From assembly GCA_026770705.1 (NCBI GenBank), contig JANJGN010000035.1, positions 310,001 through 374,000 of the forward strand: 64,000 nucleotides of DNA. The letters are read 5' to 3'. Below the pieces are notes generated by a model. It was given only the letters and a program-made list of their open reading frames with translations, was not told where the DNA came from and ran no database searches. The stretch's first letter is position 1. Each line of letters starts with the position of its first letter. This document shows, piece by piece, positions 1 to 59,638 of the stretch. The position numbers were made by a program, and so were the translations under genes. Origin of the DNA: Isurus oxyrinchus (Eukaryota).

Positions 1-54
1 AAAAACAATCACCACAATCACATTGCTTATTCTATACTGAAGGCCGGTGTAATT

Positions 55-18369: not shown

Positions 18370-18740
18370 TTGGTGTGCGGTCAAAGACAGGAGGGTGTGA
18401 CTACAAGTGAGGCAAGTAACTGGATCCAGCAAGTAGCATTGGACGAGCCTCAGCCCTTGTGCTTGTCCAACAGGAATTAATTGCTTGCAGCTTACATAAA
18501 ATACAGCAGTGACTACACCGTGGATGAATGCACACCTAAAGGGTCTCATTCCACGAGGCAGAGTAAAAGAATTGAAATTAGCTGTAGAAGAGGACAGCAT
18601 AGTCAGGCATATAGATACTAATCTTTGCAGCATGAGCTAAGAGCTGAAAGTCCTGCTGCCCGCAAAATGTCCGTTTTAAGGCTGGAGAGGAACCTGGAAT
18701 AGGAGGGGGAGGATACAATTTTTTTGATCCATGTGATATA
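18370..18740 (+). mobile_element. CR1 ORF1 (esterase-like) fragment
   Basis: GTAGAAGAGGACAGCATAGTCAGGCATATAGAT = VEEDSIVRHID, like the GDSIVR motif of CR1 ORF1. Confidence 0.55.
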
Positions 18741-18837
18741 TCGCTTTGTGGCTCAACATTAACTTTGCTTTTTTTTAATGTTAACTCTCTTGTTAAGAGG
18801 CTTGGAACTTTCCAGGCCATTGTGCCCTGGGCAGCCA

Positions 18838-18909
18838 GTGATGGGGGTATAGTGGTAAGCATAGCTCCCTTCTAATTAATTGACCCGGGTTCGGTTCTCG
18901 GCCGCCGCA
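18838..18909 (+). pseudogene. tRNA-Gly(TCC)-derived pseudogene
   Basis: GTGATGGGGGTATAGTGGTAAGCATAGCTCCCTTCTAATTAATTGACCCGGGTTCGGTTCTCGGCCGCCGCA aligns over 72 nt with tRNA-Gly(TCC); anticodon stem broken, anticodon now TCT. Confidence 0.88.
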
Positions 18910-19550
18910 GTCTGTTCATTTCTAAACCCCTGAGATATGAAGTTCGCAGCTAAATTTCATCTGATTTGGTGAAACTTCCAAAAATACGAGCTGATTTATT
19001 TTTTATAAAAAACATATTTCCAACCTCCACGTCTCATCCATTTAAAATGTAGCTTAGGTTTATTCCTTGTTGCTGATAATGAAAGGTTTTCTTGAACTGT
19101 GGTATGGAGTCAGGATAGAATGACTACGATTTAGTAAAATTCGCCGATTATATGAATTTTTCTACTCTGTTGTTTCCCATTTCTTATTTGAATATGGATT
19201 CCTGCACAGGGATTCTTTTATTGTTCAAAAAGCGAGACACTGCTCAATTTGGGAATCTGAAATAATGACTGTATTTGCTGAAATACTCATCTGTGCTCCG
19301 ACAGTATCTGTGGAGAGAGGAAAGGAGGATTCACACTTCAGGTCGAATGAAGTTTTAACGAATAGACCTGATATTGGAACGTCGAAATTGCCAGAGCTAC
19401 TAAGTTCTTCCAGTTCTTTTTTTCCATTTGAATCATGGAATATCAACAACACAGAAAGAGGCTATTCGGGCTGTCCATTCTGTGCTGGCCCTCTGAAAGA
19501 GCAATTCACCGAATGCTGCTCTCTGTAATCCTGCAATGTTTCACTATTCA

Positions 19551-19760
19551 TCTGAGTGCGGATTGATTCTATCAATATCAGACTCTGGTACTATCTGTGA
19601 TTGTGGAATGGATTCTGATGCTACCTGCGATTGTGGGATTCGTTCTATCAATGTCAGTCTCTGGTACTATCTGTGATTGTGGGATTAGTTGTGTAAATAT
19701 CAGTCTCACTTACTACCTGTGAGTGTGGTATTGATTCTGTATTTGTCAGTCTCTGACTCA
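19551..19760. repeat. 46-bp minisatellite, ~4.5 units
   Basis: Unit approx. TCTGTGATTGTGGGATTGATTCTATCAATATCAGTCTCTGGTACTA. Confidence 0.85.
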
Positions 19761-22059
19761 CGAACAATCAGCGTTCGGGTTGCACTAAGTAACTCATGTG
19801 CAGTTTTCTGCTGTAAATCAGCAACTAGAATCAACTTTTTCTGCAATTCACTTAGATCATTATCTGAGCCAAAGGATTGGGATTGGGAAACGTTCACAGA
19901 TCATTGAAAAGTGAGGGGGTTGAAGCTTTACCAACTCCAAATTGGCATCATTCCCTGCAGGGGATTTGTTGTTCACGAGCCCATCTTCAGAAAGCAATCC
20001 TGCAGAAACATGGGAGGAATGAGGGAGGTAGTGATTTCTTGGGACCGTGCAATAGTTAATATCTGACAGGGAGACCCCAGATTCATTTAATCGAAGTGAA
20101 ACACTCCGTGACTGAGAGCAATACCTAGCAATCATGTCCTGCAAGACTGCAGAGATTACAACAGGGGAAATGGGCAATAATATGAGGCTTTGGATCACTC
20201 TCTGGCACTGGCCCTGAGTGTGTGATTAATAATGTATTTTTCTCCAGTAAAATATCAGTGAGAAATGAGACAGCAACTTCTACCATTCCAATTGTACCTT
20301 CGTAAAACTGGATTGAACAATGTATTCTGCAATCGATACTTTGCCTGACTGTCTGTGTCTCATTGCCTGAACTCACCCTGACTTTATCTTTTACTCCGTC
20401 CTCTCTCCCTTTTCTCCCTTGCTCTATAAAACAACGTGGGATACGCTTACTGAAGGGCCAGAGCACAACATTTGTATTTCCATATTAATTAAACATATTG
20501 CTGGTTTTGAATCATCTAATAATGTAACATTAGACCTGTCTTAATCCAGCCAGAGCTATGATGCGTTTCAGCCCCTGAATCTGGGGACACCGTGAGCAGA
20601 GCTGCAAAACTAGAAATAACCCTGGAGAATACATAGCAGAGGCCGAGCGGAGTGGGAAGCCTATCCCTGGAACGGTCAGTCTGAGGAAAGTTTGTCCTGT
20701 GAATGTGCAACTGTGACCATTATGCAAGAGAGAGTGTGTGAAAGGGATTGGCGGGTTTAAATGATGTCCCTGTGCTTCTGTGTCTGCTCTCAGTGCCTGA
20801 TTTCTGTGCCCCTCTTGTGTGAAACAAAATGATTTCCCTGCCATAGGATCACTCTGCTGCTAGCTCTGAAGTGAGAATAAAACGGGAAGATTGAGTTGAT
20901 TTTGAGATTTCTGTCGAAAAGAAGAGAGCGTGTCAGCGAATGGATGAGACAGCATGACCAGTGCAGAAGTGAAAGAGGTTTAAAACGAAACTGAGGCTTT
21001 TTCAGTGAATGAAGCCGTTTTCAAGAACAACCATTTTGGCACTCTGGAGTTTCCGAATTGCAATGGCTTTGGACAGTTTAGCAGCAGAAAGGAACAAAAT
21101 ATTTCATGCATTAGGACACACAGTTCCCTCTAACTCCGAGCTCTGCAATCTCTCACCGTTTATACCATGTGCCTCTTTTTTGTTTGCCCTGCCAAAATGG
21201 TCAAACTCACATTTTCCTACTTTACACCCCATTTGCCATCTCTAATCACGTAACCTATCTATATCCTTCCATCCCCTTCACAACTAATTTTCCTACCTCC
21301 ATTTGTTTGATCCTTACTTCCCCATCTACTTTGACGGTTGTTCAAGTCTCATGTGTCGCTTTTAGAAATGTTTCTGCTCAAGGATTGTTGTGAATGGGGA
21401 ATTATGCCTGCCTGGTAAAGTTTGAAAGTAATAGCAGAGTGAATCACAATCAAGGAAGTATTTTGAAATATATGCATTTCAACAAAGTCCATTCTACTGC
21501 TATCTCCCCGCATCCCTGCGCATTGATGGTTTTCCAACCATCATCTCATCCCCTCTTGCACCTGGACAGGCAGTGGGAATGCAGCCTATAGCTTGGAAGG
21601 TGGGTAATGGAGGGGTGGACTTTGCTCCTCCCAGCCGCACAAAGGTGGACACATTAAAAATCCATTGTGTGGTCCCGAGGCCACTTCCTCAGTACCTGCT
21701 GCTCCCAGGTGTATTTCCATTTCCTGTGCTGGTGTATGCCACGTTACTGCTTCTGATCGGTAAGTGGAACAGCGCCATATGGATCAGGAGTGAGTGGGGT
21801 CGAGAATGAGAGAGATTGGGGCCTATAATGGAGTTTCTGGGGAAGGGGTGGGCAGGCTAGCATAGAAATGGGGAGGGGGGAGTGAAGCCAGCACGAATAG
21901 AGGAGGTGGGAAGATGGAAGCTAGGCTAGCATGGAGTTGGCTTCAGAGGGTCCGGCGGTGGGGGTGGGGGGTGGGTTTGTGGGGGCAGGGGTGAGCAGTG
22001 AGGGGGTGGGGGGAAGAATTGGCTTGAGGCAAACATCGTGTTTTTCTTCGGATTTTCTT

Positions 22060-22282
22060 TGAAATAAATGGTCCATTAACTTGATACTTCAAGGTAAGAT
22101 AATTCTCTGCTTTTAACTTGGAACGTGATCTTTAAGGAGGTGGGGTACATGGCTACTGTAATTTGGAACCTCATCCACACGATGAGGCCTCTGGCAATGC
22201 AGTACTCGGCCCTGTGCTGAGTCAGCCTGCATCGTGCTACCTGGGCTAGAACTTGGACTCTCTGCTTTCTCGATGCAGGGCA
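22060..22282 (-). mobile_element. Decayed Deu-type tRNA-derived SINE
   Basis: GCAATGCAGTACTCGGCCCTGTGCTGAGTCAGCCTG resembles a reversed shark DeuSINE body (from memory); paralog ~33515-33750. Confidence 0.5.
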
Positions 22283-22787
22283 AAAAAAAAAAAAATGACC
22301 ACAGGCCAGTCCTCATCACAAAGGGACCTGCAATATCTCCAGCACATTCGGGAGATGTTCCTCGCTACATATTTTAATCTCAACTGTAGGAGCCTCTTCA
22401 AATGCTGCTCGATATTTGTTCAAACATTATAATAGTTTGCAACATTTCTCCGTACTATCTCCGGACATAGAGAGATGTTTTCTTCAACTACGTTTATAGT
22501 GGACAGACTGTTTCCCAGTCAAGAGTAGACAGACTGTTTTTACCTGCTTGAAGTCTAATAATTATATCCAGCTAAAAATGGCCTAGAAACATTTGCATTC
22601 CAATCGAGATCACAAAATATGGTACAGTCACCCAAATTCTTCTCATTAAGTGTTCCCAGATGTTTTTGCTTCCCGCCACTAATTTTCAGTCCTTTCTGTC
22701 ATTGACAATTCTCACTCCATCAGTTGCTTCTTACCACACTTCTCCGCTTTTATTATCATCTGTTACAGCCATATCAGGGCCTCTCAA

Positions 22788-24492
22788 ATGGATTTCAGTG
22801 ACCTGATTGCTGCCGAGAGTTCGGCGCTCCCAGCAGAGCGAGCCACAGCAAGCCGAAAGTTATGTCTGGTTTTCTGGATCGCGGAGCTGCTGACCAGGAT
22901 GAGCCGCTGTCTGCCATGAGTGAGCAGAAGGATAGAGAGGAAGGTTGGATGGGCTTGGTCAAATGGAAGGGAAGAGGGAAGTTCTTCGGGAAAACTTTGA
23001 ATGTAAGTGGTAGGATTTTTATTTTCTTCTGTTATAGCGCATAGAAGCTGAACTGGAGCCCATTTGACAGTGTGAAACTAAACAAATAAATAGGCCTGGG
23101 ACCATGCCAAACAAGTTAGAATGTAAAACTGAGCAGAAAAATGTTTAAAATTCAGCCTGCACAATTGTTTCTTCAATACTTCCGTTTATGTGAGTGTCTA
23201 CAGGACAAAGTTGATCATTTCGTAATGAACTAAGGCACATGATTTATGCTCTTATCTGCACAGCGCAGCCCAAGGCAGTGACCATTGCACTGTTAAAGAT
23301 TCAGATACTAATACCTGCGATAAGCATGATATAAAGAAACTTTTAGTCAATCGTATTCATTGTGAGGTGACTGATTTCTGGGACATTGCAATATTAATTT
23401 TGCAGATTTATGGAAGGAGCTGTTGACCTGCAGCGGGACGCTGCTGCTGACTGTGCTACAGGAGCGAGCGCACAGAAGGCGAAGAATGTGATGACCAAGG
23501 GCAGTGTGCAGCCCCCTGCCACTGGACTCCATGGCACTGGGAGTGGCCCTCCACATGGAAAGGGGAAACAGTGTTATTCACCCGGGCCTGGGTTGGAGAC
23601 TAGCCGAATGCTGTGTGCAGGAATAATTGCCAAGTTGGAGGACGAGGAGCAGGAGGAACCACCCACAGCTGGAAACGTGTCAACCCCCACCAATGGAACC
23701 GAGCAATGATCAGCATTGATGATAACGGGCACTGCACACAGTGCCAGCAGAAAGGAGCTGAGTGAGCCAGCCAGAGGGAAGAGGAAAGGCAGCATCAGGC
23801 TGAGGATCAACGTTACCCTCAGTCAGAATGAAAACAGCCATATCAGGCCAATGAGGCACAGAGCTGCTCACCAGCTGCATTCGCAGCCAAAAGAGGCTGA
23901 GCTTCACTTGGTAACAACCGAACATACATGGGTGCTAAATGGACAAGGACTGCCCAGCATCACAGATCCAACACCATTTTACCCAACTCCATACATAACA
24001 GGGGTCAGACTCCGAGGTGTGGTAGATGGACAATCGCACTTGGCCCTACGAGAGACTTTGGGTGAAATGGAAACCCTGAGGCAGGAGAATGGTAACCTGC
24101 GTACAGAGAACGAGAGGCGCGGGCTCAATTGAGCAGTTGGGTAAGGACACTGCACTACAGTGTGTGATTGCTGCACATTATGATGTATTGTTTCAGGGAC
24201 CTGAAAACGGTGAACTGTGAACTTGGAACTGACCATACCTAACCCTGGTAGAGATTTGCATTTGGATGTCATGCAATGAATGTGTATCAATCCTGCCCCT
24301 TTTTAACCATCCCACCCCTTAACTGCTGAATTTGTAGCCATTCGATTTTTCTGGGTAGAAATATAGAGCAATGTGTGACTTTATTCTTTCCATTGAAGAT
24401 GTGAATCCTGGAAATCTGCAGTTCATGCGGCACAATGTTGATCTCTTGAAGGGTAAGGGTAGCTTTGACAGCAGGCCTGAAGTTGAAAAGGG
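22788..24492 (+). pseudogene. BEN-domain gene pseudogene, copy A (exons 1-3 only)
   Basis: Exon 1 22788-23009 (MDFSDLIAAE...LCLVFWIAELLTR/EPLSAMSEQKDREEGWMGLVKWKGRGKFFGKTLNVS, donor GTAGGA). Exon 2 23406-24140 (linker, coiled coil LRETLGEMETLRQENGNLRTENERR, donor GTAAGG). Exon 3 ~24322-24492. BEN exons are missing relative to copy B. Confidence 0.72.
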
Positions 24493-25597
24493 GCTGAATA
24501 CTTGTGGAATTGTCTCTCCGTTCTGTGAACTTAGGTCACACTGAGAGGTCACATCATGCCCTCAATCTTGATTTTCCCGTCAACATGCTCACAAGCAGTG
24601 GATCAGTGGGACCAGGGTTTATGCCAATTGGATGGCATCTCTCTCTTGTAATGCAACTGGATTAGCAATCTGATAAATCAAAAGTAAATTGTTATCTAAA
24701 CAATTCGAACCAGACTGAAGTCACTACACACAGTTTCTGCGCCAAACATTGGACTGGAGATCACCGGCAGCCCGCCATACAAATGTGTTCTGTACCCTCC
24801 TGACTCAGATAGCGAGCTCAAAATTAATTGCATCTTGAATACTGGAAGCAACGTTCATCCACATAACTATAATGCACAGTTATTCATCGTATTTATATTG
24901 TATACAGTGTTCTCATAAATCCGACTCACTCAAATGAGAATAATTGTAAAAACGATCAATTATATATAAAACTGCAAAGTGCAATTGTGAAAATGTGTGA
25001 GACAGAAGGGCAGGTAACTATCGAAACTTTGGTGAGAGAGAGAGACAGAGTCACCCATTGCTTCCAGAAGAGTGGATGATTGAAAATGTTACATCCAGAT
25101 TCAAAAAAATGGGATAAAAGTTAAACTGCCTATTGCCGGCCAGCCTGTTTCACGCATATGGCGGGGAAGCTTAGACAAACAATAATCCTGAAATAAATAA
25201 ATTGAAATAGAGAAATAAATCAGAAGCCTGGCGATCGCCGACACTGGCTGCTCTCCTCCAAGTTTGACGTGAGTATTAAATGTGCAGATTTCACTATTAG
25301 CACATTTTCGCATTGAGAAATGGAGCCACTAGTCTCACGAAGAATTGTCCTGACCAGGGGGCAACTCAATTTTTTTATTCAACAATTATGCCATTTTTTG
25401 GGTTATTAAGCATTATAAATCCAGATTCTAATTGAAACACAGTGAGTTCACTGAGAGAAGGTATCCATTCATCTTCGCCTCTGATGTAATTGAAGGAAGG
25501 CGGCACCCCTACAGTACCACATTGAACCCACCTCTTCAGTTTCATTTGTGAATGTGAGAAGCTAACACTAGGTTTCTTTACTTTGGTTACTTTGGTA

Positions 25598-25718
25598 AAA
25601 GGCTATAGGCCAAGTGCTGGTGAATGGGGTTAGATAGCTGGTCAGGCACTTCTCACGTGCCGGTGCAGACTCGATGGGCCAAAGGCCTCTTCTGCTCTGT
25701 GATTCTGTGATTCTGTGA
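25598..25718 (+). mobile_element. Short CR1 3' tail insertion
   Basis: TCGATGGGCCAAAGGCCTCTTCTG followed by CTGTGATT repeats; absent from the paralog. Confidence 0.75.
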
Positions 25719-26229
25719 AAATCTGATGGTGAATGCCATTCATATTCCTCTCTGTTCCTCCTCGCCAATCTTTCGTTTTCTTTTATTCTAACTCTATTTG
25801 GCCCTTGAACTCCCTCCTAAACCTCCTCAATTTTTGTCACTAAACCGCAGCTCAGCGCCTACATTTAACCCACTGACTATCCCATAACTGAAGTCTTTCC
25901 TCATGATGGCAGGAGGGATTCAGTACATATTTCTTATAATGTTCAATGGGTAAGATCAGTCCATAAGCTACTGCCACTGACCCAGTGTCACAGTCCAAGA
26001 ATTAAAGCCAGAGATTTCCCTGCGGGAATGGGAAAATAATTCTAAACACAAAGGGAGCTAGAATTTCTCTACACGGCAATAAATGTTTCACCCAATGATT
26101 TTTTTTGAAATCTGAGATTCAAAGAGTTTTCTTAAAAGAGATTATTACGAAATATGAGGGAAAAGCGAAGATATGGAGGTAGTCACCAAACAAACAGAAA
26201 AAAACAGAACATGCTCCAGTGAATAAAGG

Positions 26230-30719: not shown

Positions 30720-30905
30720 ATTCCCTCCCTAAACTACTCAACTTCTACAGCTCCTTCTGATCTTTAAGATGTTACTTAACAGCTTCCCCTTTGACCAAGC
30801 TTTTGTCATCTGATCTAATATCTCCTTCTGTGGCTCAGCATCATTTTTGCTTTATTTGTCATTATAACCCTCTTGTTAAGACTTTTATGACTTATGGCTA
30901 TGTGC
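30720..30905 (+). mobile_element. L2 LINE 3' remnant
   Basis: CTTTAAGATGTTACTTAA...CTTTGACCAAGCTTTTG resembles the L2 ORF end. Confidence 0.55.
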
Positions 30906-30920
30906 CAATATCAGTATTTA

Positions 30921-30993
30921 TCGATGGCGATACAGTGGTGAGCATAGCTGCTTTCCAAGTATTTGACCCCCAGTTCGATTCCCAGCTGCCGCA
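30921..30993 (+). pseudogene. tRNA-Gly(TCC) pseudogene
   Basis: CAGTGGTGAGCATAGCTGCTTTCCAAGTATTTGACCCCCAGTTCGATTCCCAGCTGCCGCA; TCC anticodon kept, stems broken; T run downstream. Confidence 0.88.
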
Positions 30994-31640
30994 ATTTCTT
31001 GTTTTTTTTTTAAACCTCTCAAATCGGAAACCCCAAACATGAAGCTGAATTTGATTCATTTCAATGAAATTTTGCTTCGAACACATGGGCGGGTTTAATA
31101 GAGATATAATTAATTCCCACCTCTACTTACCTTCCATTTAAAATGTAACTCAGATGTTTTCCTTCTTGATGATAATTAAGGCTTTTCCTGAGCTGTAGTG
31201 TGGAGCCGGGATAGAATTACTCAGATTTGTAACATTCAGCGATTCTCTGAATATTTTCCATCTGCTGCTTCCAATATCTTATTTGAATACCGATTCCTGC
31301 GCAGGGATTGTTTTATTGTTCATAAAGTGACAGACTGCTCACGCTGGGAATCTGAAATAATAACAGAAGGTGCTGGAAAAACTCAGCAGGTCCTGCAGCA
31401 TCTCCGGAGACAGGATATGGGGTTTCACATTTCACCTTGATAGAAGTTTTAACAAATCGACCCGCTATCGAAGCATCGATACTGCCACAGCTACTCAGTT
31501 TTTCCAGTATTTTCCATTAGAATCATAGAATGGCGACAACTCTGAAAGAGGCTATTTGGGCCATCTAATCTGTTCTGGCCCTCTAAAGGAACAATTCACC
31601 CACTGCCACTCCGCGTAACCCTGCAATGTTTTTCTATGCA

Positions 31641-31911
31641 TGTGAGTGCGGATGGATTCTATAAATAACAGTCTCTGGTACTGTCTGTGATTGTGGAACT
31701 GATTCTGGGACTATCAGTCTCTGATACTGTCTTTATTTGTTGTATTGATTCGATCAATTTCAGTCCCTGGCACTATCTGCAAATGTGTGATTGATTCAAT
31801 GAATATCAGTCTTTGCTTCCATCGGTGGATCTGAGATTGATTCGGTAAATATCAATCTCTGCTACTAGCTGTGAGTGTGGGATTGATTCTGTATCTTTCA
31901 GTCTCCAACTC
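31641..31911. repeat. 46-bp minisatellite, ~6 units
   Basis: Same unit as 19551-19760. Confidence 0.85.
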
Positions 31912-34663
31912 ACAAACAAGCAGCGTTCCATGTGGGACTAAATACCTCATGCGTGGTTTTCCGCTGCAAATCAGCAACTGAAATCAACATTTTCTACAAT
32001 TCACTTTGATCAGCATCTGAACAAAAGAACTGGAGATGGGGAAAGGTCAGAGAAGAATGAAAAAATCGGACTTGTCCTTTTAGGAAGCTCAATTTGTGAC
32101 CATTCTCCACAGGGCATTTGCTGTTTACGAGCCCATTTTCACAAAGCAATCCTGCAGAAACATGGGAGGATTGAGGAGGCTAGCGAATTTGCTGGGACAG
32201 GGCAATAATTAATACTTACTCACCTCTGAAGTGGGAGTTAAACGGAAAGATTTAGTTGATTTTATGATTTCAGTAGGAAAGTAAAGAACATGTCAGCAAA
32301 TGGGTGAGAGAGGGCGATCTCTGCAGCAATAAAATAGGTTTAAGTCGAAACTGAGGCTTTTTCAGCGATTGGGAACTTTTCAAAAGCAACCATTCTGGTC
32401 TCAGAGACAGGAAGGATCTCGCCTGGGACTCTGGACTGTCCGATTTTCAATGAGAGTTTAGCAGCACACGGAAACCAAAAGTTTCATGCACTAGGACACC
32501 CAAACTCCTTTGCATCTCAGAGCTTTGCTATCTCTCACCGGTTGGATTATGTGCCTCTTTTTTGTCCGTGCTGACAAAATGGACAACCTGACGTTTTATT
32601 ACTTTCTACTCCATTTGCCAGGTCTTTGTCCAATCACGTAACATATCAAGATCCTTACGCCCTCTTCACAACTTACTTTACGACCTACAATTGTGTCGTA
32701 ATTGTTTAACAGCCTTGCCACATGTTCAAGTCTCATTTGTCATTTTTAGAATGTTGTGAATGGGGAGCTATTCCCGCCATTAATTTTTGAAAGCGATAGC
32801 AGAACGAACCACAATTTATACAGGATTTTAAAATATGCATATTTCACCTGGTGTAATTCACCTGCCTTCTCCCCGCAACCCCGCGCATTGTTAGTTCTCC
32901 AACAATCATCTAATCCCCTCTTGTTCTGGGACAGGAAGTGGGAATGCAACCTGTACCTGGGAAGGTCAGTACTAGAGGATTGGCCTCTGCCCCTCCCGGC
33001 CACACAAAGGTGGGCACATTAAAATCCCTATGTGTGGTCCAGAGGCCGCACCCACAGTACCTGCTGCTCCCAGGGGTATTTCCACATCCTGTGCTGTTCG
33101 GTGCCCCTTTTCTGCTTGTTATCGGTAATTGAAAAATTTCCAGGTGAATCAGGAGTGAGCGGGACCGAGAATACGAGAGGTTGGAGCCTTTGGACCGAGC
33201 TGGGAGAGGCCACAACGTTTTAAGTCGGGCAGAGGTGAAGGGCAAGGCCAGAACCATGTGGATCCCGAGAGAGCGAGGATTGTGAATGCAAACAATTATT
33301 TTGATATTGGGGCATGGTAGGGGTGAGGGGGTGGGGGTAATTGGGGAGTCAGGCAAGCATGGATACGGAGAACGGGGAGCCAGGATGGCATGGTGATAGA
33401 GGGTGGGAGGAGGGAAGCGAGACCGGCCTGGAGTTGTTTTTAGTGGGGGAGGCGGGTGAGAGGGCGGAAGAACTGGCTTGAAACTTCTACCCTGATGTTT
33501 TTTGGCATATTCTTTGAAATAAGTGGCCCATTAACCTAATCTTTCCGCGTGTAAGAGCTGTTACAGTGAGAGAATTCTCTGCTTCATCCTCTGAATGTGA
33601 TCTTTAGGGAGACGGGGCACATGGCTGCTGCAGTTTGAAACCTCCTCCACATGATGAGGCCGCTAGTAATGCAGCACTCAGCCCTGTGCTGAGTCAGACT
33701 GCATGGTGCATCCTGGGCTACAAATTGGATTCCCTGCTTTCGGGATAGAGAGAAAAGAAAATATGACCGCAGGCCAGCCATCACCTCAAGGGGATCTGAA
33801 AAGCCTGCAGCACATTTGGGAGATGATCCCCGTGACATGTTTATCTCAACCACGGAAGTCTCTTCATCTGCCGCTCGTGCTTTATTCGAGAATTGTTTCA
33901 GTTTCCACCCTTTCTCAGTGCCACCCCCGCACATAGGGAGATGTTTTCTTCAACTTAGTTTACAGTGGACAAAATGTCCACTTGAGTTTTAATAATTACA
34001 CCCACTTGAAAATGGTCTAGAAACATCTGCAGTACAATAGAGGTCAAACAAAACTCTAGATTGGTGTAGTCATCAATCCTTGTCATAACGTGTTCCCAGA
34101 TCTTTTTGCTTCCCGCCCCTAATTTTCAGTCTTTTCTGACCAATGCTGCCATTCTGACCATTGTCCATTCTCAGTCCATCAGCAGGTTCATATCAGGCTT
34201 TGTCCACTGTGGTTACCATCCCTTTTGGCCATCTCGACATCAGTGACCTTATTGCTGCCAAGGACTCAGCATCCCCGGCAGAGCAAGCTGCAGCGACCCA
34301 TAATTTATGTCTGTTATTCTAGAGCGCAGAGCTGCTGACCAGGATTGAGCCGCTGTCTACCATGAGCAACAAGAAGGATCGAGAGGAAGGGGGGACGTTC
34401 TGTGTCAAATGGAAGGGGCGAGGAAAGGTCTTGGGGAAAATTTTGAGAATAAGTGGAAGCAGAGTGTTTATTTTCTCCTCCTGCAACATAGGGTAGGCCG
34501 CAGTGACAGGGAAAAGCGAGTTAGTAAATAGGCCTGGGGTCATGGCGAACAATGTAGAGTGCAAAACTAGCCAGAAAACTGCATAAAAAAAACACTCTGC
34601 ACAATAATTTATTCAATGCTCCCGTTTAGATGGGAGTGTATAGGTCAAGCACGACCATTTCAC

Positions 34664-35341
34664 TTTTTAAAAAAGATACTAAAGTTTATTTTCCAACCTG
34701 AGCAAGAGTTCGAAGGAATGTTTACAAAATGTTTCGCTATTTCCACTTTAAGACATGATCAATACTCAAAACTAACAAAAATACTAAATAAAGGCCCAGC
34801 GTCCACAAGAAGCCAAACCTACAGTCCAATAATGTTTTAGAAAATGTTTGAATATCACCCCAAAATAGTCTGGAGGTGATGTAATAAAGCAAAGAGTTTA
34901 AGCACGCTCCCCCGGATCCGTTGTACCAGCTGGGTGTCTTTGGGCATAACGGTCACTCTTTTGATATGGATGGCACACAGTTTGGTGTCCTCAAACAGGC
35001 CAACCAAGTAGGCCTCACTGGCTTCCTGCAGTGCTCCAATTGGCACACTCTGAAACCTCAGGTCAGTTTCGAAGCCCTGGGCAATTTCCCTCACCGGGCG
35101 CTGGAAGGACACTTTGCGGATAAACAACTCTATATGGAATTCTGGCATCGGCAGATTTCTCAGAGTGCGACTGTACCCAGCCTGTAGCGACGAGATCTCT
35201 TCACTTCGCCAGTGGATGGAGCATATTTCTGGGCTGTCTTGGAGGCCAGCTGTTTCCTGGGCGCGTTGCCGCTGGTGGACTTCCAGGCTATCTGTTTGGT
35301 ATGAGCCATCTCTACTCAGAGGATCAACTTGACCGCCTGCA
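34664..35341 (-). pseudogene. Histone H3.3 processed pseudogene
   Basis: CDS relic 35309-34898 ([12 protein letters not shown]...APSTG...[23 protein letters not shown]...); S31 and I89/G90 are H3.3-diagnostic; no introns; 3' UTR with AATAAA (34690-34685) and A5 remnant (34668-34664); internal stop and frameshifts. Confidence 0.92.
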
Positions 35342-36789
35342 ATAGTGAACTCATGTAAATTATTTAGGTTCTTGTTGTCAGAGTGCAGCACAAACAATGA
35401 TCATTGCACTGTTACAGAGGCAGATATTAATAGCTGCAATAAACAAAGAACCCTTTTATTCAATCCTATTCATTGTGAATTGACTGATTTCTGAGACATT
35501 CAAATATTACTCTTGGAGAGTTAAAGAAGGAGCTGAGGACCGCTCAGCAACCTGTTGATCTGCAGCTGGGCACTGCTGCTGACCGTGCTGCAGGAGCGAG
35601 CACACAGAAGGTGGAAATAGTGTAGACCAAGGACAGTGTGCACCCTCCTGCCGCTGGACTCCATGGCAATGGGGGTGGCTCAGCACAGAAAAAAAGGGAA
35701 AGTAGCGTCATTCACCTGGGCCTAGTTTGTAGACTAGCCGACAGAAGTGTGCAGGGTTAATGGCCAAGCTGGAGGATGACCAGGAGGAGGAACGACCTAC
35801 CAACAGGATGGTGTGAACCTGCACCAGTGGCACCGAGCAGTGGTCAGCATTGGTGAAAACTGCCACTCTGTACAGTGACAGTGGAAAGGAGCCAAGTGAG
35901 GCAGCCAGAGGGAAGGATGGATGGCAGCATGAGGCTGAGTCTCAACGTTTATTCCCAGTCAGAATGACAGCAGCCACATCAGGCCAATCAGAGCCCCTCA
36001 CCAGCTGCTTTCAAAGTCACATTCTGCTGAGCTTCCTTTGGTAACAGCTGAACTTACATGGGTGGGTAATGCACATGCACAGTCCAGCATCGCAGATCGA
36101 ACATCACTTTATCCATCTCCATAAATATCAGTGGTCAGACAGCGAGTATGACAGGCTGAAATGCAAGCCCAGAGGCAGGAGAATGGTATCCTGTGTGCAG
36201 AGTACCATAGACCGTGGGCTCAGTTGAACAGCTGGACCAAGGCACTAGATGTCCTCTCTGTGACAAGCTGGGTAAGAATTCCCTGTTCCATGCTGCACTC
36301 CACAAATCAGCAGCTTCCTCTACAGTCAGTGATTGCCGGGTCCCTGCACATTATGATGAATTGTTTGAGGCACCTGAAATCAGAGTTGTGTGAATAGAGA
36401 TCCTGCAATTGAATGTAATGAAATTCACGTGGATCATCCCCACGTGGCCCCCGCCCTTCTGCCCCCTCCACAGCTTCTGAATCTATAGCCCTTGGATTCC
36501 TCTGGAGAGCAAGATAAAGCAACCAGCGAGTTTCCCCTTTCCTTTGAAGCTGTGAATCTTGGAAAGCTCATGCGGGAGATTTTTGGTCCCTTTGGTCCCA
36601 GTGGTAATTGACAGCAGGCGTGAAGATGAAAAGTCGGTGAGTGCTTGTGGAACCCTCCCAACAATATGTGAACTTAGGTCAGACTGAGAGATCACATCAT
36701 GTTCTCACCCTTGATTTTGCCAAGAATATGCTCACAAGCAATGGATCAGAGACAATGGTACCTGCATCAATTGACTGGCCTTGTTCTCT

Positions 36790-37105
36790 GGTGACGTCAC
36801 TGGATTAGTAATCCAGAGAGGCTAATGCTCAGGGGACATAAGTTCAAATCCAACTATGGCAGCTGATCGAATTTCAAATCAGTTGAGACATTCTGGGATA
36901 TAAAACCAATTTAAATAATGTTGGCCAACATTAGAGTATCGTCGGTTGTTGTAAAAAAAAGCAGGTTCATAAATGTCCCATGCGGACGGAAATCTGCTGT
37001 CCTTGCCCAGCCTGGTCTGCAGTAATGTGGTTGACACTTAACCATTCTCAAAGGATGGGGGTGCCGGCCTTGTCAGGGATGTTACATTGGAGAGAATGAA
37101 GAAAG
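36790..37105 (+). mobile_element. tRNA-headed SINE with LINE family B tail
   Basis: Head GTCACTGGATTAGTAATCCAG...AGTTCAAATCC (B-box-like); tail GGATGGG..TGCCGGCCTTGTCAG resembles the LINE B 3' end; related fragment at ~53190-53360. Confidence 0.65.
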
Positions 37106-38105
37106 TCCTTGTTCTATCGCTCTGTAAGGCATAGAGTGGCCTGCCTAGTTCAGCCTCGACGCTTTGAGTGATTCTTGTCACCAAGTTAGGAAATTAAATG
37201 AGAAATCGCAGCGATCACGCTTTGACTCGCTCTTTACGATGGTTCAATGTCCATGACTGAAACATTTTTAATAATATTTTTCAAAGCGACCAGCAGTTAT
37301 TCCCAGCATTATACCGACCTCAGGGGGTAACTGCCAATCAACCACCTATTAATGCCGTAATTAACATAGATGCAGAGCCGCATTTTCACACAAAGAATAC
37401 CTCCTGGAGGCAGGATTGAAGAATGGGAGTGGGAATGAAGATTTGAGGCAAGTACAATTCACTCAGGACATGAAAGCACATTGTCTAGTTTTCACATCCT
37501 ATCGTGTTTTAGCAGCAACACGCATTTGCAGCCATCAGACTATCAGGATCTCAAATTAATTCCCTAACTTTCAGAAACCTGGGCAAGAGAATGTGAAAGT
37601 GCAACATCGTCAAACATTTTTTGTTGCACCGGAAAAATTGGAGACTCTGAAATAGTTAGAAAAGAGAAATCTGGTTATAAGCCGCCTGGTGCATGCACTC
37701 TTCACTAGTGATGTCCTTCTGAACTCAAGCTGCAGGGGCACAGCTTCTACAGCAGACGGGAGGAAGCCTTTACCCTTAATGGTCATTGAGACAGTCAACG
37801 GTGAGTGCACATATCAACCAGTAGCCAGGCATTTATGGAGAAAGTAAATATATTGCATGTAATTCCCAGGAGCTGTTGGATGGTGAACTAAACACTCGGT
37901 CTGGGACCAAATGTTTCAGTAAAAGAGCGTCTCTCTTGTGATTTTAATAAGCGAATGTGTTACCTTCTCGGAGTTCATGAGACAGCACCATCGACAGGAT
38001 GGAGAACCAGTGACGGGAGAGACAGAGCTGAACCGAATAATAAACAGCTGCTGCACAAATGCAAGACGGCGGCCCAGCAGGAACTGGACGCAATAAGAGT
38101 GGGAT

Positions 38106-48892: not shown

Positions 48893-49575
48893 TCTACTCC
48901 CCATCACTGTCGAACAAGAGATATCATAAGCTTTTGTTCAATTTTACTGTTAGGTATTTCATCCTCTGCAGTGCATTCCCCTCAGAGGCAGACCGGCAGC
49001 CTCCCTTTGGCTTCATTTCACAATTATTCTAATTTGAACCAACTACTCGTTCCTTACCAGCAATGTATGATTTGACAACTCCTGTTGCCCAGGCATCTGC
49101 GCTGGGCCTTTAAACCTTTGCAGTATTCGTCGGTTTTGGTAAGATATAATTGGAGCGGGAAGCTACAAAAGGCACAGAGGTAGATTTCTCAAGTGGATTA
49201 AAAAAATCATATGGTGCTTGTTGTGGGAACCGGTGACACCGTCACACTGAAAACCACGAAGCTCATTCAGAGTAACGCGAGACATTGTGCAAATCACAAA
49301 GTGTCGGGTTAAAGAAAGTGTCAACCCAAGGGTCTTATCAAAAAGGACTGCAACACTTATCCCTCCTCATTCATTCCTGGCGAACATGCAGTGACGCAAA
49401 AAATTCAACTCTCTCTCATCATTTTCGCCGGCAATATTTCAAATTGCTCCTTCCGCTTGAACCTCTCAAGGAAATGGTGATCCTGTTTGGCTTCATTACA
49501 TCGGCTCCTAATTCCCTACTGTGTTTCAGGACGTCATTGGTTAAATTTAAAACCATGCATTGACTGAAAGGATAA

Positions 49576-49649
49576 AGGTGCCACTGACATTTTAACAGAG
49601 TATCTCATGTGTATTAAAGAAGCGTTTTAAATAACCAAGTCACAAGCCC
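49576..49649 (-). pseudogene. tRNA-Thr-like pseudogene
   Basis: Paralog of 52746-52819; AGGTGCCACTG...GCGTTTTAAATAACCAAGTCACAAGCCC, 74 nt. Confidence 0.6.
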
Positions 49650-51082
49650 AACACTGACCAGAGTTTACAAAGTAAAGTTCTGAATTGCATCCCACTTCTT
49701 CGCTGCAAATATTATTGTTCATTTGTGCGAATTGAAAACTTTCACCTGCACTGGGCTTTCAAAACTTTGAAGATTCTATTTCTTCAGGTGAGATATTAAG
49801 TTGCAAGCATGAACGTTCTTCCTTTCCAGATGACAGTCCCTTCTTAATTCTTCCCTTGCAGTTCATTTCACCTCAATCACAGGCGCTGCATTCCAGACCT
49901 TAAATTCTTCCTGCGAGAAAAAATAAAGTTTTATTTTTCTTCGTCTCAGTTTTTTTTTTTAGCAACTACTTTAAATCTGCAACAGCTCGAACTTGATCCT
50001 TTCACGAACGGGAACACTTTCCTCCCATCAAATCTGCTCAGGCCCTTCGTGATTTTCTATCCTTCTATCAAATCTCCATTCAGACTTCTTTTCTCCCAGA
50101 ACAACAGTCCTAACCTCTACAATCTATCTTCCTAACTGAAGTTCCTCATCTCAGCAGCCATCTCGTGATTTTTTTTCTGCACTCCTTCCAGCATCCTTAA
50201 TATCCTTCCTAAATTGTAGCGCCCAGAACCAGACGAGATGCACCAGCTGAGGCTGAACTCTTAGGGACACTTAGAAATCCTACTTATGTTATTCCAATTA
50301 CACCATTCTTCGTTTTTTTGTGCCATGTCTGTTGTCCTCATAGACAATCGCTTTCGATGTGATTCCATAACCAAAACATCGGATCTAAGCTGTGCAGTTC
50401 TGTCACTTCCAGTCGTGAAAGACGGTGGACAATTAAACACTAATTGGGAACGAGGCCCCGAATATAAATGATGACCTCAGCAGCGAATCTTAAATTCAGG
50501 AAGCAATAAAATAAAAAGCTGTCAATGTGTTCCGAGGGTCGCTGCACCCCTACCCTGGTGTCCTGTGCCATCCTCAGTTCAAAGCTTCCCATAGTGGACC
50601 AAACCTTATCGGTCACCGTCTATTCAGTGAGGTTCATCCCAACCACAGTTTCCAGATGGAATGAAAGCGGAGAAAAACATTTGTTTTTACACAATTTAGT
50701 GGTTGATTGAGATGTCTTTAAAACCTTGTCTTTTTTTGCTGGAAAAACGTCTCAAATCCCTTGAGACGTTCGTAGATTGATCCGTAGGTGTCCCTCATTG
50801 TGTAGGTGCACACAGTGGATAAAGACAGAGAGGAAAAGAAAATGTAATATCCAGCACGACTTCTGCACTGACCCCAAAGCAGTTTTCATTCATGTAATAT
50901 GGCAAACCCACTGGTACATTGGGATGAACTGAAAAGGGAGCGATACATAAGCATACCAGTGCACGTTCTTTTCAAAGGGAATTTCGATCCTATTGTGCTT
51001 CTTTATGTTCACAATCATTCCATATGCTTCCTCACGACATGAAAATGTTCAGCTCTTTGCCTGATTAATTTTAAATAAATAA

Positions 51083-51157
51083 CAGCACCATTGACATCTG
51101 AACTCAGGATCGTCTGCAAGACTGTATGTAAGACATGACCCACTCTACCACACTGCT
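51083..51157 (-). pseudogene. Decayed tRNA-Thr-like relic
   Basis: GCACCATTGACATCTGAACTCAGGATC; paralog of 28905-28978 (a still weaker copy at ~47865-47930). Confidence 0.5.
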
Positions 51158-52027
51158 AAGTCACAACAGTTATGTTTTGAACCGTATTTCACTATTTTGC
51201 TGTAAGTTCATTGAGAATTCTTCATCTGTTACGGGGCTGTAGGGCAGCGCGAAATAAGATTTTTGAGGAAGGAGCTATTGAGGTCGACATTCAACCAAGA
51301 AGTTCTAGACGGTTTGTGAAGCCGTGAGACCCATGACACACCTGCCCCTATTTCTCATGTTATTGCAGACACTGCTCAGAAGATACATCAGGATTATGGT
51401 AAGCCAGGAAAGGAAGCAGCACTGTTTGACCAGTGGGCTCTGGAGTTCAGCAGGTTACATCTGGAGTTAAATTTCATCATCCACGATTCGTATTAGCATT
51501 CAATGGGGTCAGCCGATAAATAGGCTATTTGGCCCATCCTGTCTGTGCTGGCTCGTTGAAGGAGAAATTCGCCTCAATCAATCCACCGGCCATCTCCCCG
51601 ATCCTTACGAAATCGTCAGTTTTATTTTCAGGGATTAAATGTTTTTTCTCTTTTCTTCATTATAGAAGAATGATCTGATCGAGGCTTCTAACCTGTTAAA
51701 GTGAATTGTTAGTTTAAACACAGAGAAGCCATTTCACCCGGCAGGAAGAATGGGGTTGAATGTTGACTTTTGTTTTGGTCACAGTTCCACAGCGCAGGTG
51801 CCAGCCAAGCAAGAGGAATGTCAGGAAACATTCTTCACACAAGGAGTACCTGGAAACCCAGGAAGGAATTTAAATTGATCGAGGCTACCACAATTCCAAG
51901 ACAGTGGATCCTTTGTTGGAAATCAAAGTAACGCCGCCAGTTCCTCAGCTCCCCGTGAAGAATTCAGCGTCCAAGGCTGTCTCTTTGGTCGTTTCACCGG
52001 GCGTGAACATCTTAAGCCGAAAGTGAA

Positions 52028-52100
52028 CAGCCAGACATGGACTTATCACCTGAACGCTCAGATTAAAATTCTGGTGCCCTAACGAAAGAGCTGCCCAGTG
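52028..52100 (-). pseudogene. tRNA-Lys(TTT) pseudogene
   Basis: GGACTTATCACCTGAACGCTCAGATTAAAATTCTGGTGCCCTAACGAAAGAGCTGCCC; TTT anticodon kept; 73 nt. Confidence 0.78.
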
Positions 52101-52745
52101 AGAGCAGCCATCACTACTTAAAAAGAGGCGTCACAAGCTTTTTATGCATTCCCTTGTGAGGTGACTCATCTTCTGCAGCTCCTTTTTCCTCACAAGCAGA
52201 CCAGCAGACTCCCTTTGGCTTCATTTTACAATTATTCTAATTTGCACCTACTACTCACTCCTGACACATGGCGTGTGACCTCGCAACTGTTTTGAGCCAG
52301 TTATCTGCACTGGGCATTTAAAGCTTTGAAGATTGCATTGGTTTCGGGAAGATATAATTGGAGTCGGAAGCTAAAAACTGAATAAACAATTTCTAACGGT
52401 GTTTGTAGTGGGAACGTGTGATGACATCACATTGAAAAAACAAAGCTTCTAAATAGTCCAAATCACAAATTGTAGGGATGGAAATAGATCTGCCAGCCCA
52501 AGGACTTCATCAAAAAAGCACCAACATTTATCTCTCCCCGTTTGTTCCTTCCTAAAGCGCAGTAACATAAATCATTCAAACTTTGCCCACAGTTATCACC
52601 GGCAATATTTTAAAATGTTCTTCCCGCATGACTTCCCAAGGAAAGAATGATCCTATCCGGCTTCATTATATAGTCGCCTAATTATCAATGTTGCCTCTGG
52701 ACGTCAATGTTTTTATTTAATTCCATGCATCGACTTAATCGATGA

Positions 52746-52819
52746 AGACACATCTGACAATGAAAAGCAGAATCGCTTTTACATTAAACAAGCGCTTTAA
52801 CCAACTAAGTCACAACGCC
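52746..52819 (-). pseudogene. tRNA-Thr pseudogene
   Basis: ACAAGCGCTTTAACCAACTAAGTCACAACGCC closely matches the reverse complement of the tRNA-Thr 5' half; 3' half decayed. Confidence 0.75.
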
Positions 52820-53388
52820 AACACTGAATAGAGCTTTGCAATGTAAACTTCAAAATTGTATCCCACTACTTTGCTGCAAACATTATTGTTCATCTCTTAT
52901 TGGGCTGTATGAAAAGTTCGAATTGAGAACGTTCATCTGCACAGGGCTTTCAAAGCTTTGAAGATTCGATTTCTTTCGGTGAGATATTAAGTCAGATAAA
53001 TTCCAGTGAGAGGTACGAAGGGAGAGGGATTGATTTTGCGAATTGAGAAACTGCTTCACATAGTGCCTGTTGTGGGAATGTGAAGTCCTGGCAGGTCCCG
53101 GAGATGCTGTTGCTTTATTGTAGGTCAGATAGCAGACTCACCCTCCGTTAATTGAAGATCAACCTCATTTCTGGACTCAAACACAGATCACTGGTTCTAG
53201 GTCTTTCCTTCCGACCATGGATTGGTCGACATGTGACTCCAGGCACAGAGCTCTAAACTGTCCCCCTGAATTGGTCTAGCAAAGCACTGGGTCTTATTAA
53301 AATCGCAGTTGCAAAGAGCAATTAGGGACTGAGGAAATGCTGGTCTCAGCAGTCACAGATCACAGCCCTTCCCTTTTGTTCTTTTTGT

Positions 53389-53404
53389 GGCTCTGAAAAG
53401 AGCC
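53389..53404 (-). promoter_or_regulatory. Histone 3' stem-loop with downstream HDE
   Basis: Minus strand GGCTCTTTTCAGAGCC, a perfect consensus, followed by a purine-rich stretch ending GAAGGGCTGTG. Confidence 0.9.
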
Positions 53405-53432
53405 ATTGTTAGATATAGTGCTGAAAGCAGTT

Positions 53433-55770: not shown

Positions 55771-56739
55771 AATGCATAAGAAGCATTGCAGAGAAAGGTC
55801 AGTCAATTCTTTCCGAGGATGACGGGTTTAACTTATCAAGGCGGTTTGGTCCTGTTTCCATTGGAGTTGAGAAGAAAGCGAGGAGACCTTCCTGAATCAT
55901 ACCCGGTCCCGAAGGGACATGATCGGATGGAGTCGAGAAGTAGGGGACAGTGTAGAAAAAGGAGAGGTCTCCATTTTAAGAGGAAATGCGAGGTTTTTTT
56001 ACTCCTCGTAGAGCGGCGTTCTGTGTAATTTTACTTTTTGCTGTCTCCATGAACACTTTCTTTCAACCAAGGCCCGGAAATTAGGCGTTTGCATTGCATG
56101 GATGTCCTGAATGTTCATGACACGCAAAAGGCTCTTTCTCACTTGACAAACATTTTCTTCCACCTGCTGTGATGGGAATTGAAATTCACTGGTAAATATG
56201 ATCAAACAGTTTATGTTTTTTTTTGTAAAATGCACTTTTTTTACTTCAGCGAACATTGCAAATACAATTTAACCGACCAGTTCACATGTTGATGTCCTTT
56301 TCACTTTGTTTGATGTATTTCATGACTCTGCTGGGTGCTCTATTACATGCATCCAGCACTGTCTGTCTTAAAAAAATAAGCACCACAATCATATTGCTCA
56401 TTTTCCACCCCAGGTCGGTATGATTTATTTTTCATTTATGGGATGTGAGCGTCGCTGGCTAGGCCAGCATCTACAGCTGCTCCTAAATTACGCTAGAGAA
56501 CTTGGTGATGTGCTGCCTTCTTGAACTGTTAAAGTCCATGTGGTGTAGGTGCACTCAGAGTGCAGTGAGAGATGGAGTTGCAAGATGTTCACATCGGCAT
56601 CTTTCTCTTTCTTCTGGACAATATTTGTTGTAAGGGACCTGAACAAAATGAATAATTGTCAGTATGGAGTCCCCATCTGAAAGAGGAAACGCATCCGGTA
56701 GAGATGATATAACACGCGTTCACTAGCCTCATGCGAAAG

Positions 56740-57900
56740 CAAGACTCAGCATGGTTTTTCGAAAGGGAAATCATGTTTAACCAAGTTATTAGAGTTTTTT
56801 GAAGGATAAGCATGTGTTATGGATGAAGAGGAGCACGTATGCTTAATATACTTCGATTTTTAAAAGGCCTTAGACAAGCTGCCACATCGAAGGTTATTGC
56901 AGAAAATAAATGTTCATGGTATAGGGGTAAGATATTGGCATGGAGAGAAGGCTGGCTGGCTGTCAGAAAACAGAGAGTATGCATATGTGGGTCTTTGTCT
57001 GATTGGCAGGAAATACGACTGGATTGGGATAGGTGCTGGGATCATGATTTTTTACAATTTATATCAATCGCTTAGATGAGGAGAGTTAAGTCATGATAGA
57101 TAATTTTTCAGTTGGCACAGATAAAGTTGGGAAAGTTCTGAAGGTTGCAAAAGGAACATGCAAATAGAAATATATGGATTGAGTTTTTGGGCAAAAACCT
57201 ACAGATGGATAATTATTTTGGAACATGTGAAGTTGTTCATTTTGGTAGGGAAAATAATAATAATAAGAAACAAATTATTAATTACACAGAGAACGACTGC
57301 AGAGTTCCAAGCTGCAGGTGGATCTAGGTGCCTTGGTTCATGAGTCACAAAAAGTTATTATGCAGGTACAGCACGTAATGTAGAAGTCGAATGCAATGCT
57401 ATCCTTTATTTCTAGTCGAATTGGAGACAAAAGAAAGGCTGTTAAGCTTCAGTAATACAGGGTAATCATGAGTCCAAATCTGGAGTACTGTATGCCTTTT
57501 TTTCCCTTTACTTTAGGAAGGATGTAAGTGAGTTTGAGGCGGTTCAGAGCGGGTTTACTGGGTTGATACCTGGAATGAGCGGGTGCCTTATGAGTATTGG
57601 TCGGACAGACTGGGTGTGTTCCTCGTAGGACAGTGGAAATTAGATGTTTTTTTTTTCTCTCAGGTGACTATGCGACTTCAGAACATTCGGCCTCAGAAAG
57701 CAATGGAGGTGCTGTCATTTAAAATTTAAAAAAATACAGGTAAATAAATTCTTGTAAGGCAAAAGTTTCAAAGGCTTTCGGCGCAGATGGGAATGTGGAA
57801 TGCGAAATACAAACATATCATCCACGATCTTGGTGAACGGAGGAACAGCCTCGAAGATCCATTTGATTTACTTCTGCTCCTATTTCCTATGTTCGTAGCA
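56740..57900 (+). mobile_element. Decayed CR1 LINE (paralog of 350-1630)
   Basis: QHGFSKGKSCLTKLLEFFE; YFDF*KALDKLPH; same tail and flanks as the first copy. Confidence 0.88.
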
Positions 57901-59560
57901 AATGTAGATATTGGAAATCTGAAGTAACAACAGAAATTCCTGTTATGCTCTCCAGACACTACTGCTTCCTGGGAAAGAGAAAATCTCAATCTTTCAGCTC
58001 TGTAAACCAAAGGTGTTGTCTGAGCTGCTGAGTGAAGCCAGCATTTTCTAAAGGCTGAAAGTCCTATGTTTTAATTATAGCTTGGTCCCTAGATTCATGC
58101 CAATATTCAAAGCAGAGATTCAGCAAGATTACTGTATACTCTCTGGATCTTAGTGTAATCAGTGATGAGGAGAAATCTATTCAACAAATGTTTATGTATC
58201 TTTGAAGTGCCCTAACACAGGGGATTGGGAGAGCTCAAAATATTTAAACCTGTGATCAATATATTATTGAATACTGAGCGGATAAGAGGATATGAGAATA
58301 GCCCTGCGCCTATCCATCAGTCTGATGGGAAAATGAAAATGTTGCACATAAAGATCAAAGAGAGGGAAACAGAGAGACAAACAGACAGACATTCAAAGGT
58401 AGAGAATGACGGGCAGAGACATACGTCGCAATATTTTTGCTTCATTAGTTGGACATGGCAAAGAGAAAGACTTCCAGAGAAACAATGACACGCTCAGAAA
58501 ATAGTTCAGGAAGTAAGACGCACACGTAATAAAACACGTTTAAAGTGGAGATAGATTTCAATACGAGGAAGTAAGCAATGTTATTACGAACTTTTGGAGG
58601 ACCAATATGGAAAGTCGCTACACTGTAAAAGCGAGGTTTTTGTAAAGTGTGGATGGGCAGTGAGACATTTCCCTCCATATACACAACGCTCATAATGTAG
58701 CTCAATAAGCATATTGAATATTTTGGTTTCTAAATGGAGAAAGAGCATGTTAAGCCACCGGGGTCATGCTAGAACTTGAAGTCCTGCATTTAGACATTCG
58801 TAAGCAATCTTGTTAGTTTTGTTCACCACTCTTCAGCAAGGCATCAGAAAGGGGCTCGAGAACGTTCACTGGGGCGTTTCAAAGGATGAAATTGTTATAT
58901 TATGAGGTGTTGTTGGACAACCCCGGGTTGTTATACTTTGGACAAAACATTTTAAAAAATCACCAAATAATGGTTTTCCACATCATGCGAGATTTGGGGA
59001 GGGTAAACAAGGAAAAAATCCCCTCTGTGTGTACATCAATAACTAAAGGTCATGGATTCAAATTCGTTGACAAAAGTTATGCAGATGACGGGAGCCGATA
59101 CATTTCCATTCGGAGTTGGTGGGATCTGGAAGGCTTGACATGAATAGGTGTCAGAAGATATTTTCGTGAATAATTTTAGATAGAAATTGGAAAGGCCATT
59201 GCAGACGAGCATCTTAGAAAACCACAATAAACAAGAACAACGCAGGAGCAATTAACAAAAACAACGCACACATGCACAAATACAAGCGCACGGAAAATTT
59301 GCCTGCACATACCGTTGGGCACATCTAATTAAGCTTAAAGTGACATCGACAATGTGAGAAAGGGAGAAAAAGAAGGGTGGCATTAATTTAGCTGATATTT
59401 GTGGTATTCATGACAGAAAATTCGTGAGCACATGGAGATGAATAAGAATGAGGAAAGCGACTTCTGTTGTTGAAAAGTTTGCGATATGATACTGCATAAG
59501 GCAGAACTCATCTCTAAGGAAATTGGCCAAATTTTGAAACTGAACGAAGAACAGAATTTG

Positions 59561-59638
59561 CATAGTCGCAAGGATTTGAATCTGCTCAAAGGCACGCTAA
59601 TGCATGTGTATTTGCTTTCCGCACTCGGCCACAACTAC
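59561..59638 (-). pseudogene. tRNA-Ser pseudogene (paralog of 3301-3382)
   Basis: CATAGTCGCAAGGATTTGAATCTGC...CACTCGGCCACAACTAC; anticodon arm destroyed. Confidence 0.75.

Follow-up and report, generated by a model that had tools for sequence, protein, structure and literature searches.

A decayed BEN-domain gene in Isurus oxyrinchus and its probable origin in an extinct CACTA/EnSpm transposon

Introduction

A 64,000-nt stretch of the Isurus oxyrinchus genome (assembly GCA_026770705.1, contig JANJGN010000035.1, positions 310,001–374,000 of the forward strand; hereafter the window, with positions counted from its first nucleotide) holds the remains of a five-exon gene that appears to have encoded a BEN-domain protein. 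The question raised by this locus is what the gene was, and how pieces of it came to lie twice among tRNA genes. In the original prediction, made from the letters of the window, the gene was thought not to be a standard vertebrate BEND ortholog and possibly to belong to a lineage-specific or transposon-borne family. The reading that we favour, with a probability of about 85%, is that the window contains two broken copies of a BEN gene whose older relatives at other loci of the genome lie inside an extinct CACTA/EnSpm transposon, head-to-head with its transposase, and that the BEN protein was a likely end-binding helper.

Results

Dispersed relatives of the gene are joined to CACTA-type ends

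Searches of the 4.98-Gb genome with single exons returned 191, 112, 167 and 172 candidates, of which 40, 40, 150 and 150 were scored. The two copies first reported are thus part of a family of more than 100 related pieces (112–191 candidates per exon search). Most are located on contigs in which one block recurs, a tRNA-Asp gene lying ∼0.8 kb downstream and a tRNA-Gly relic upstream; these are termed cluster copies. A minority, the dispersed copies, are single, lie on chromosome-sized contigs and show 65–77% identity. Sixteen dispersed loci were read and 15 were kept, the locus on C8 being dropped as without DNA similarity. Alignment of cluster and dispersed copies fixed five exons, with junction phases of 1, 1, 0 and 1.

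The dispersed copies have sharp left and right ends, formed by inverted repeats of ∼21 bases that start with CCCTA. At ≤5 mismatches, this terminal repeat was present on the expected side in 10 of the 15 BEN-bearing loci, and on both sides in four; at an eleventh locus it is seen in the alignment, and the other four have none in the DNA fetched. A 20-mer of the repeat occurs exactly 19 times genome-wide, compared with zero for the reversed control. In several dispersed copies exon 1 is joined straight to the right end, a junction that, by analogy, resembles those of internal-deletion derivatives. Target duplications of 3 bp were found at 3/16 paired ends (p = 0.014) and of 2 bp at another 3/16, giving 6/16 for either length (permutation p = 0.004). 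Just inside 25 ends, the motif TGACATCA occurs 28 times, against once just outside, and TGATCA 45 times, against 7, the motif having been chosen from these same ends.

A search for the CACTA transposase family gave one weak match, which was confirmed as Transposase_21 in Pfam (E = 1.5e-5, 24.7 bits, cut-off 28.6). Relatives of this transposase were found at 10 loci, and at 49–77% identity they adjoin terminal ends and the BEN gene. Eight of the 10 were read with 20–50 kb of flank. At four of the eight, pieces of the BEN gene lie head-to-head with the transposase, on the opposite strand (C1:236.3 Mb, C10:161.3 Mb, C11:22.0 Mb and C3:145.8 Mb, the last with a 124-base exon-5 piece only); the C21 locus has an exon-1 piece, inverted, and no BEN-gene piece was found within these flanks at C24, C1:95.6 Mb or C7:78.6 Mb. 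The terminal repeat is present at four of the eight, on the left at C11 and C7 and on the right at C1 and C3. According to PMC12730594, CACTA transposases are characterized by a full DDE triad together with the motifs C(2)C and H(3-4)H. In the C24 fragment, where the frames are broken, a CxxC can be made out.

The CCCTA ends and the head-to-head Tnp2-type transposase together argue that an extinct CACTA/EnSpm transposon carried the BEN gene as its second gene. The transposon-borne option of the original prediction is thus supported by ends and a linked transposase found at other loci; around the window copies themselves neither was detected. An origin in piggyBac, which also has CCC ends, was rejected: piggyBac targets TTAA, which the flanks are not, and the transposase found here belongs to the Tnp2 type.

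A second, distant CACTA-like transposase family (∼30% identity), outside the sample of eight, is represented by the remaining two loci, C14:72.2 Mb and C5:96.8 Mb (L260 and L261), with open frames of 240 and 417 codons.

Both halves of the C-terminal part match the BEN domain of NAC1

The BEN domain is a five-helix fold with a middle loop, as described in PMC10789644. In copy B of the window its two halves would be encoded by exon 4 (37575–37800, +) and exon 5 (37972–38096, +). The match of exon 4 to Pfam BEN (PF10523) that the original prediction had expected was found at E = 0.048, with a score of 14.3 bits that is lower than the curated 23.2. Four of five sister exon-4 peptides also matched, with a best E of 0.028, below cut-off and over half a domain only, and two of the five gave a weak match to DUF4806. 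Against solved structures, exon 4 aligned with residues 58–102 of the NAC1 BEN domain (E = 0.43, row 2 of 4) and exon 5, independently, with residues 105–137 (E = 0.0087, the sole molecule listed). The two matches are adjacent and collinear with the NAC1/NACC domain (PDB 8yzs, 7bv9), including its C-terminal CTNARR helix. The exon-4 profile also aligned with eight host BEN half-domains (hhalign, 87%, E = 3.9e-6). Word-indexed protein searches with exon 4 and with the exon-1 alignment found nothing, which is weak evidence.

The intron that divides the domain lies at the same place and in the same phase as in 8/8 split host BEN exons of this genome. The host BEN genes, which we take to include BEND3, BEND7 and BANP, each occupy a single locus of their own, with sequences different from that of the window gene. 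With more than 100 related pieces, none of those read intact, and host genes elsewhere, the gene is, as first proposed, not a standard BEND ortholog; by sequence it is BEN-like, with both halves matching NAC1.

Three related host BEN half-domain exons (L087, L088 and L092), presumably BEND2-like, lie within 120 kb at C18:10.52–10.64 Mb. Two others, at C10:79.49 Mb (L090) and C23:4.79 Mb (L089), are presumably BEND4-like, and L089 is judged by eye to align best with exon 4.

The N-terminal module has relatives in sea cucumbers

Among 1.84 billion representatives, the module encoded by exon 1 has seven relatives, including sea-cucumber proteins whose cluster contains a 580-residue 'BEN domain-containing protein'. 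It aligns with the sea-cucumber protein PIK37918 (P0011) at 96.9% (hhalign, E = 1.6e-10), and this protein adjoins BEN, BEND5-like and BEND6 clusters in the Atlas (0.91). The N-terminal modules match, whereas the BEN half of the window family has no match in PIK37918. A protein search with P0011 found its own cluster only, an Atlas search with exon 1 gave no match above 0.77, and the profile of the module found no relative by sequence among solved structures.

A model of the module, built from exon 1 of a sister copy, has a predicted local distance difference test (pLDDT) score of 59. The top fold matches of this low-confidence model are Tudor domains, at Foldseek E values of 0.2 or more, and with ARID4B it gave a VIA Z of 5.8 and a root-mean-square deviation of 2.2 over 56 residues. 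The module is weakly predicted to be Tudor-like, and a role in reading chromatin is a guess from this weak fold match.

A 91-aa protein from an ENA record (P0001) shares 41% identity with the exon-1 peptide, the SHLD motif that follows the start included, and is much closer to it than the sea-cucumber proteins are.

Neither copy in the window can encode the protein

The two copies lie in a duplicated block, 18736–26079 aligning in pieces with 30818–40048 at 70–73% identity. The five exon-like segments first reported were confirmed for copy B (34230–38096), while copy A (22776–24493) has only three. In copy B, exon 1 (34230–34455, +) specifies the N-terminal module and has a deleted start codon, an in-frame TAG and a lost donor. 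Intron 1 contains a broken histone H3.3 retrocopy with its 3′ untranslated region (34661–35342, −; coding part 34898–35309), which was absent from the earlier reading. Exon 2 (35519–36271, +), for the low-complexity linker and the heptad-like stretch, has 9 to 12 stops per frame, and exon 3 (36550–36636, +) is short and damaged. Exon 4 has one in-frame TAG and keeps its phase-1 donor, in the position seen in host BEN genes. The acceptor of exon 5 is lost, reading GG at 37970–37971. The invariant splice dinucleotides are kept at 6/8 positions, the exon-1 donor being the other loss, and the exon-2 acceptor is weakened to GAG.

In copy A, exon 1 (22776–23009, +) is frameshifted, exon 2 (23406–24135, +; 3′ end approximate) has its donor deleted, and exon 3 (24399–24493, +), with a CT for a donor, is followed by no BEN exons. 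Only 3/5 invariant dinucleotides remain, and the description of mostly intact splice sites was not confirmed. The ATG that copy A was said to keep, at 22788, is secondary, other copies having CTG at the aligned codon. The ancestral start is 12 nt farther upstream, at 22776, and is ATG in 7/12 dispersed and 2/20 cluster copies and AGG in copy A.

The protein motifs quoted in the original prediction are present in the translation, where a heptad-like LRQEN stretch is visible by eye (no coiled-coil program was used). The proposal that A and B together restore an ancestral reading frame fails, since exon 5 is present only in B, where it has no acceptor AG any more. A real gene is thus seen here in a dead state, and neither copy can encode the protein.

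Element-derived sequence also flanks copy B, from 33462 to 34229 (+) on the 5′ side and as a right-arm remnant from 38223 to 38530 (+) on the 3′ side. Similarity in the remnant fades near 38530, as judged by eye, which is several hundred bases short of the position of the terminal repeat in dispersed copies. Directly behind the stop codon, ahead of the remnant, is an inserted short repeat (38103–38221) that is very abundant and contains an inverted part; it dominates RNA contigs and yields a spurious mir-216 match.

The cluster copies form one lineage

Downstream of copy B lies tRNA-Asp(GTC) (38918–38991, +), a member of the duplicated host unit, and on its 5′ side a tRNA-Gly relic (30923–30986, +), with a twin 5′ of copy A at 18838–18909. 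The tRNA-Asp gene was called in 12/20 cluster stretches. Trees were built for exon 1 (28 rows) and for exons 4 + 5 (14 rows), both unrooted and with rows projected on cluster references; in each, one branch sets the cluster copies apart, with support of 97/93 and 100/99, respectively. No terminal repeat was found in 52 cluster sequences totalling 574 kb, the window among them, and no transposase piece in the window. The exon-5 acceptor is lost in 11/11 cluster copies and kept in 5/6 dispersed copies, which places this damage before the spread of the cluster copies. The H3.3 insert is 93–100% identical among B-type copies and 81% in other cluster copies, and is a useful marker for dating the cluster duplications.

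The absence of ends, the single lineage and the shared H3.3 insert fit a single capture that was followed by damage at an early stage and then by many duplications. The two window copies belong to this one lineage, which probably multiplied passively with the tRNA cluster; the amplification within tRNA-cluster duplications that was first suggested is borne out by the repeated block and the trees. No intact gene was found among the copies scored for decay (32 for exon 1, 16 for exon 4 and 17 for exon 5, a minority of the 100+), where intact copies had been sought. One cluster copy, L045, has a clean exon 1 with ATG and donor.

Two candidate parent genes, at C20:81.30 Mb and C17:88.40 Mb, proved to be truncated cluster copies. 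Dada-like elements insert specifically at tRNA genes, and an insertion of this kind was rejected, as 0/15 dispersed copies lie beside a tRNA gene and the cluster copies are one lineage.

The coding frame was once under constraint

Pairwise ratios of non-synonymous to synonymous substitution (dN/dS) were 0.38–0.60 in the coding frame, 0.65–3.6 in the other two frames and 0.60–1.11 in introns; the pairs are non-independent and transition bias is uncorrected. Constraint limited to the coding frame points to past selection. Dispersed copies gave 0.38–0.50, and such frame-specific constraint indicates that the gene remained functional during the spread of the family. Among the cluster lineages, which lack ends, the ratio was 0.48–0.60, against 0.74–0.90 in introns 2 and 3, and exon 5 is 93% identical, against 83–88% for neighbouring segments.

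In four RNA runs, each in the form of contigs, no joint matching any of the four introns was found and only a few low-depth pieces were seen; silence is not proven by this.

Other features of the window

A histone 3′ stem-loop above the Rfam cut-off lies at 53364–53409 (−) and a tRNA-Ile(AAT) gene at 43018–43091 (−). The window has other old segmental duplications of ∼70% identity (1–5730 and 56372–61965; 47530–52992).

Discussion

Elements of this type have been described in other animals. According to the accessible part of PMC1636069, animal CACTA elements have CCC ends and short target duplications in only half of the copies; SmTRC1 of Schistosoma and TRC of Tribolium share with the present element a Transposase_21 transposase, ends starting with CCC (CCCTA in Tribolium), short target duplications (here putative) in part of the copies and many truncated copies. 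Their duplications are of 2 bp, whereas here 3 bp is equally frequent, and in that part of the source they are described without a separate BEN gene, in contrast to the divergent five-exon gene seen here. The same source records that TnpA of maize En/Spm works with TnpD. A second gene in CACTA elements is already known, and a 2022 paper describes the function of the second protein of animal elements as unknown (PMC9191631). The pairing of BEN with CACTA/EnSpm was not found in the published literature searched, a scope that excludes Repbase, subscription papers and supplements.

The maize element offers a functional parallel to what we propose. Its TnpA binds the subterminal repeats, and both are two-protein elements with a transposase, a DNA-binding helper (here predicted) and repeated motifs inside the ends. 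TnpA and TnpD, however, come from one alternatively spliced unit, whereas the present element has two genes, placed head-to-head, and its predicted helper is a BEN-domain protein. NACC proteins, the nearest match for that domain, carry an N-terminal BTB domain; the N-terminal module of the window gene is a different one, and the gene is part of a transposon. In overall layout, with the N-terminal module followed by a linker, a coiled-coil-like stretch and BEN at the C-terminus, it is like BEND5/BEND6-type proteins and PIK37918.

The loci read show an element with CCCTA inverted ends, TGACATCA-type subterminal motifs, a Tnp2-family transposase and the BEN gene on opposite strands, and many internally deleted derivatives. 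The BEN protein, with an N-terminus weakly predicted to be Tudor-like, a linker, a heptad stretch and a NAC1-like BEN domain, may have bound the subterminal motifs and built or regulated the transposition complex, as TnpA does for En/Spm. One copy would then have landed between tRNA genes, losing the transposase and both ends, acquired the H3.3 retrocopy in some lineages, and increased in number passively as segments of the tRNA cluster were repeatedly duplicated.

Several observations count against this account. None of the loci read holds a complete element that unites both ends, the transposase and the BEN gene, and the layout is assembled from several decayed loci. Ten of the 16 paired ends are without a target duplication, the copies being old, and duplications of 2 bp, taken alone, do not exceed chance (p = 0.11). 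The Transposase_21 and BEN matches both fall under their curated Pfam cut-offs, and a profile from the four BEND3 repeats of this genome did not recognize exons 4 + 5 joined (2.7 bits, equalled by 7/500 shuffles). Finally, a dN/dS of ∼0.5–0.6 in cluster lineages that had lost their ends is unexpected under pure neutral decay.

This last point leaves room for a period of host use. It is conceivable that the cluster lineage served the host after the loss of its ends, expanded under selection and decayed later, in which case an intact copy may survive, here or in a related genome. The contrast with introns 2 and 3, the higher identity of exon 5 and the clean exon 1 of L045 all agree with this. 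We nevertheless regard such a domesticated gene as unlikely, as the exon-5 acceptor was damaged before the copies spread, none of the part of the 100+ copies examined is intact, no spliced RNA was seen, and the dN/dS pairs on which the idea depends share the non-independence and transition bias given above. Less likely again, and in our judgement improbable, is that a fragment of a host gene was captured as Pack-CACTA-style cargo with no part in transposition. The four introns that were kept, the intron inside BEN that matches those of host genes, and a nearest solved relative that is host NAC1 would all suit a captured fragment, but not the constraint in dispersed copies, nor an N-terminal module that matches invertebrate proteins and no host gene of this genome, nor the same layout across several subfamilies.

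That the window holds an ordinary BEND or NACC paralog turned pseudogene, nested in a transposon by chance, is largely refuted and very hard to credit. The similarity to BEN and NAC1, in a genome rich in nested repeats, could be read in this way, but host BEN genes are at separate single loci with different sequence, and the ends, the deletions from exon 1 to the right end, and a head-to-head transposase at 4/8 loci are not expected by chance. We therefore retain the reading of a BEN helper gene from a CACTA/EnSpm element.

The locus is itself inactive, and its interest is that of a fossil, one that ties a BEN gene to CACTA ends and a transposase in a vertebrate genome. It puts the BEN protein forward as a candidate for the second product encoded by animal CACTA elements, with the TGACATCA-type subterminal motif as a concrete putative binding target. 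It also illustrates how one dead transposon fragment, by riding on tRNA-cluster duplications, can become more than 100 pieces that might be mistaken for a gene family. The finding bears, lastly, on the origin of vertebrate BEN transcription factors. A tentative extension, which we hold as doubtful, is that CACTA BEN helpers were the stock of vertebrate BEN regulators of the NACC, BANP and BEND types, as the phase-1 intron shared inside BEN would suggest, the cluster lineage being a failed domestication that was selected after end loss. Host BEN regulators may share a CACTA origin with the dead gene described here.

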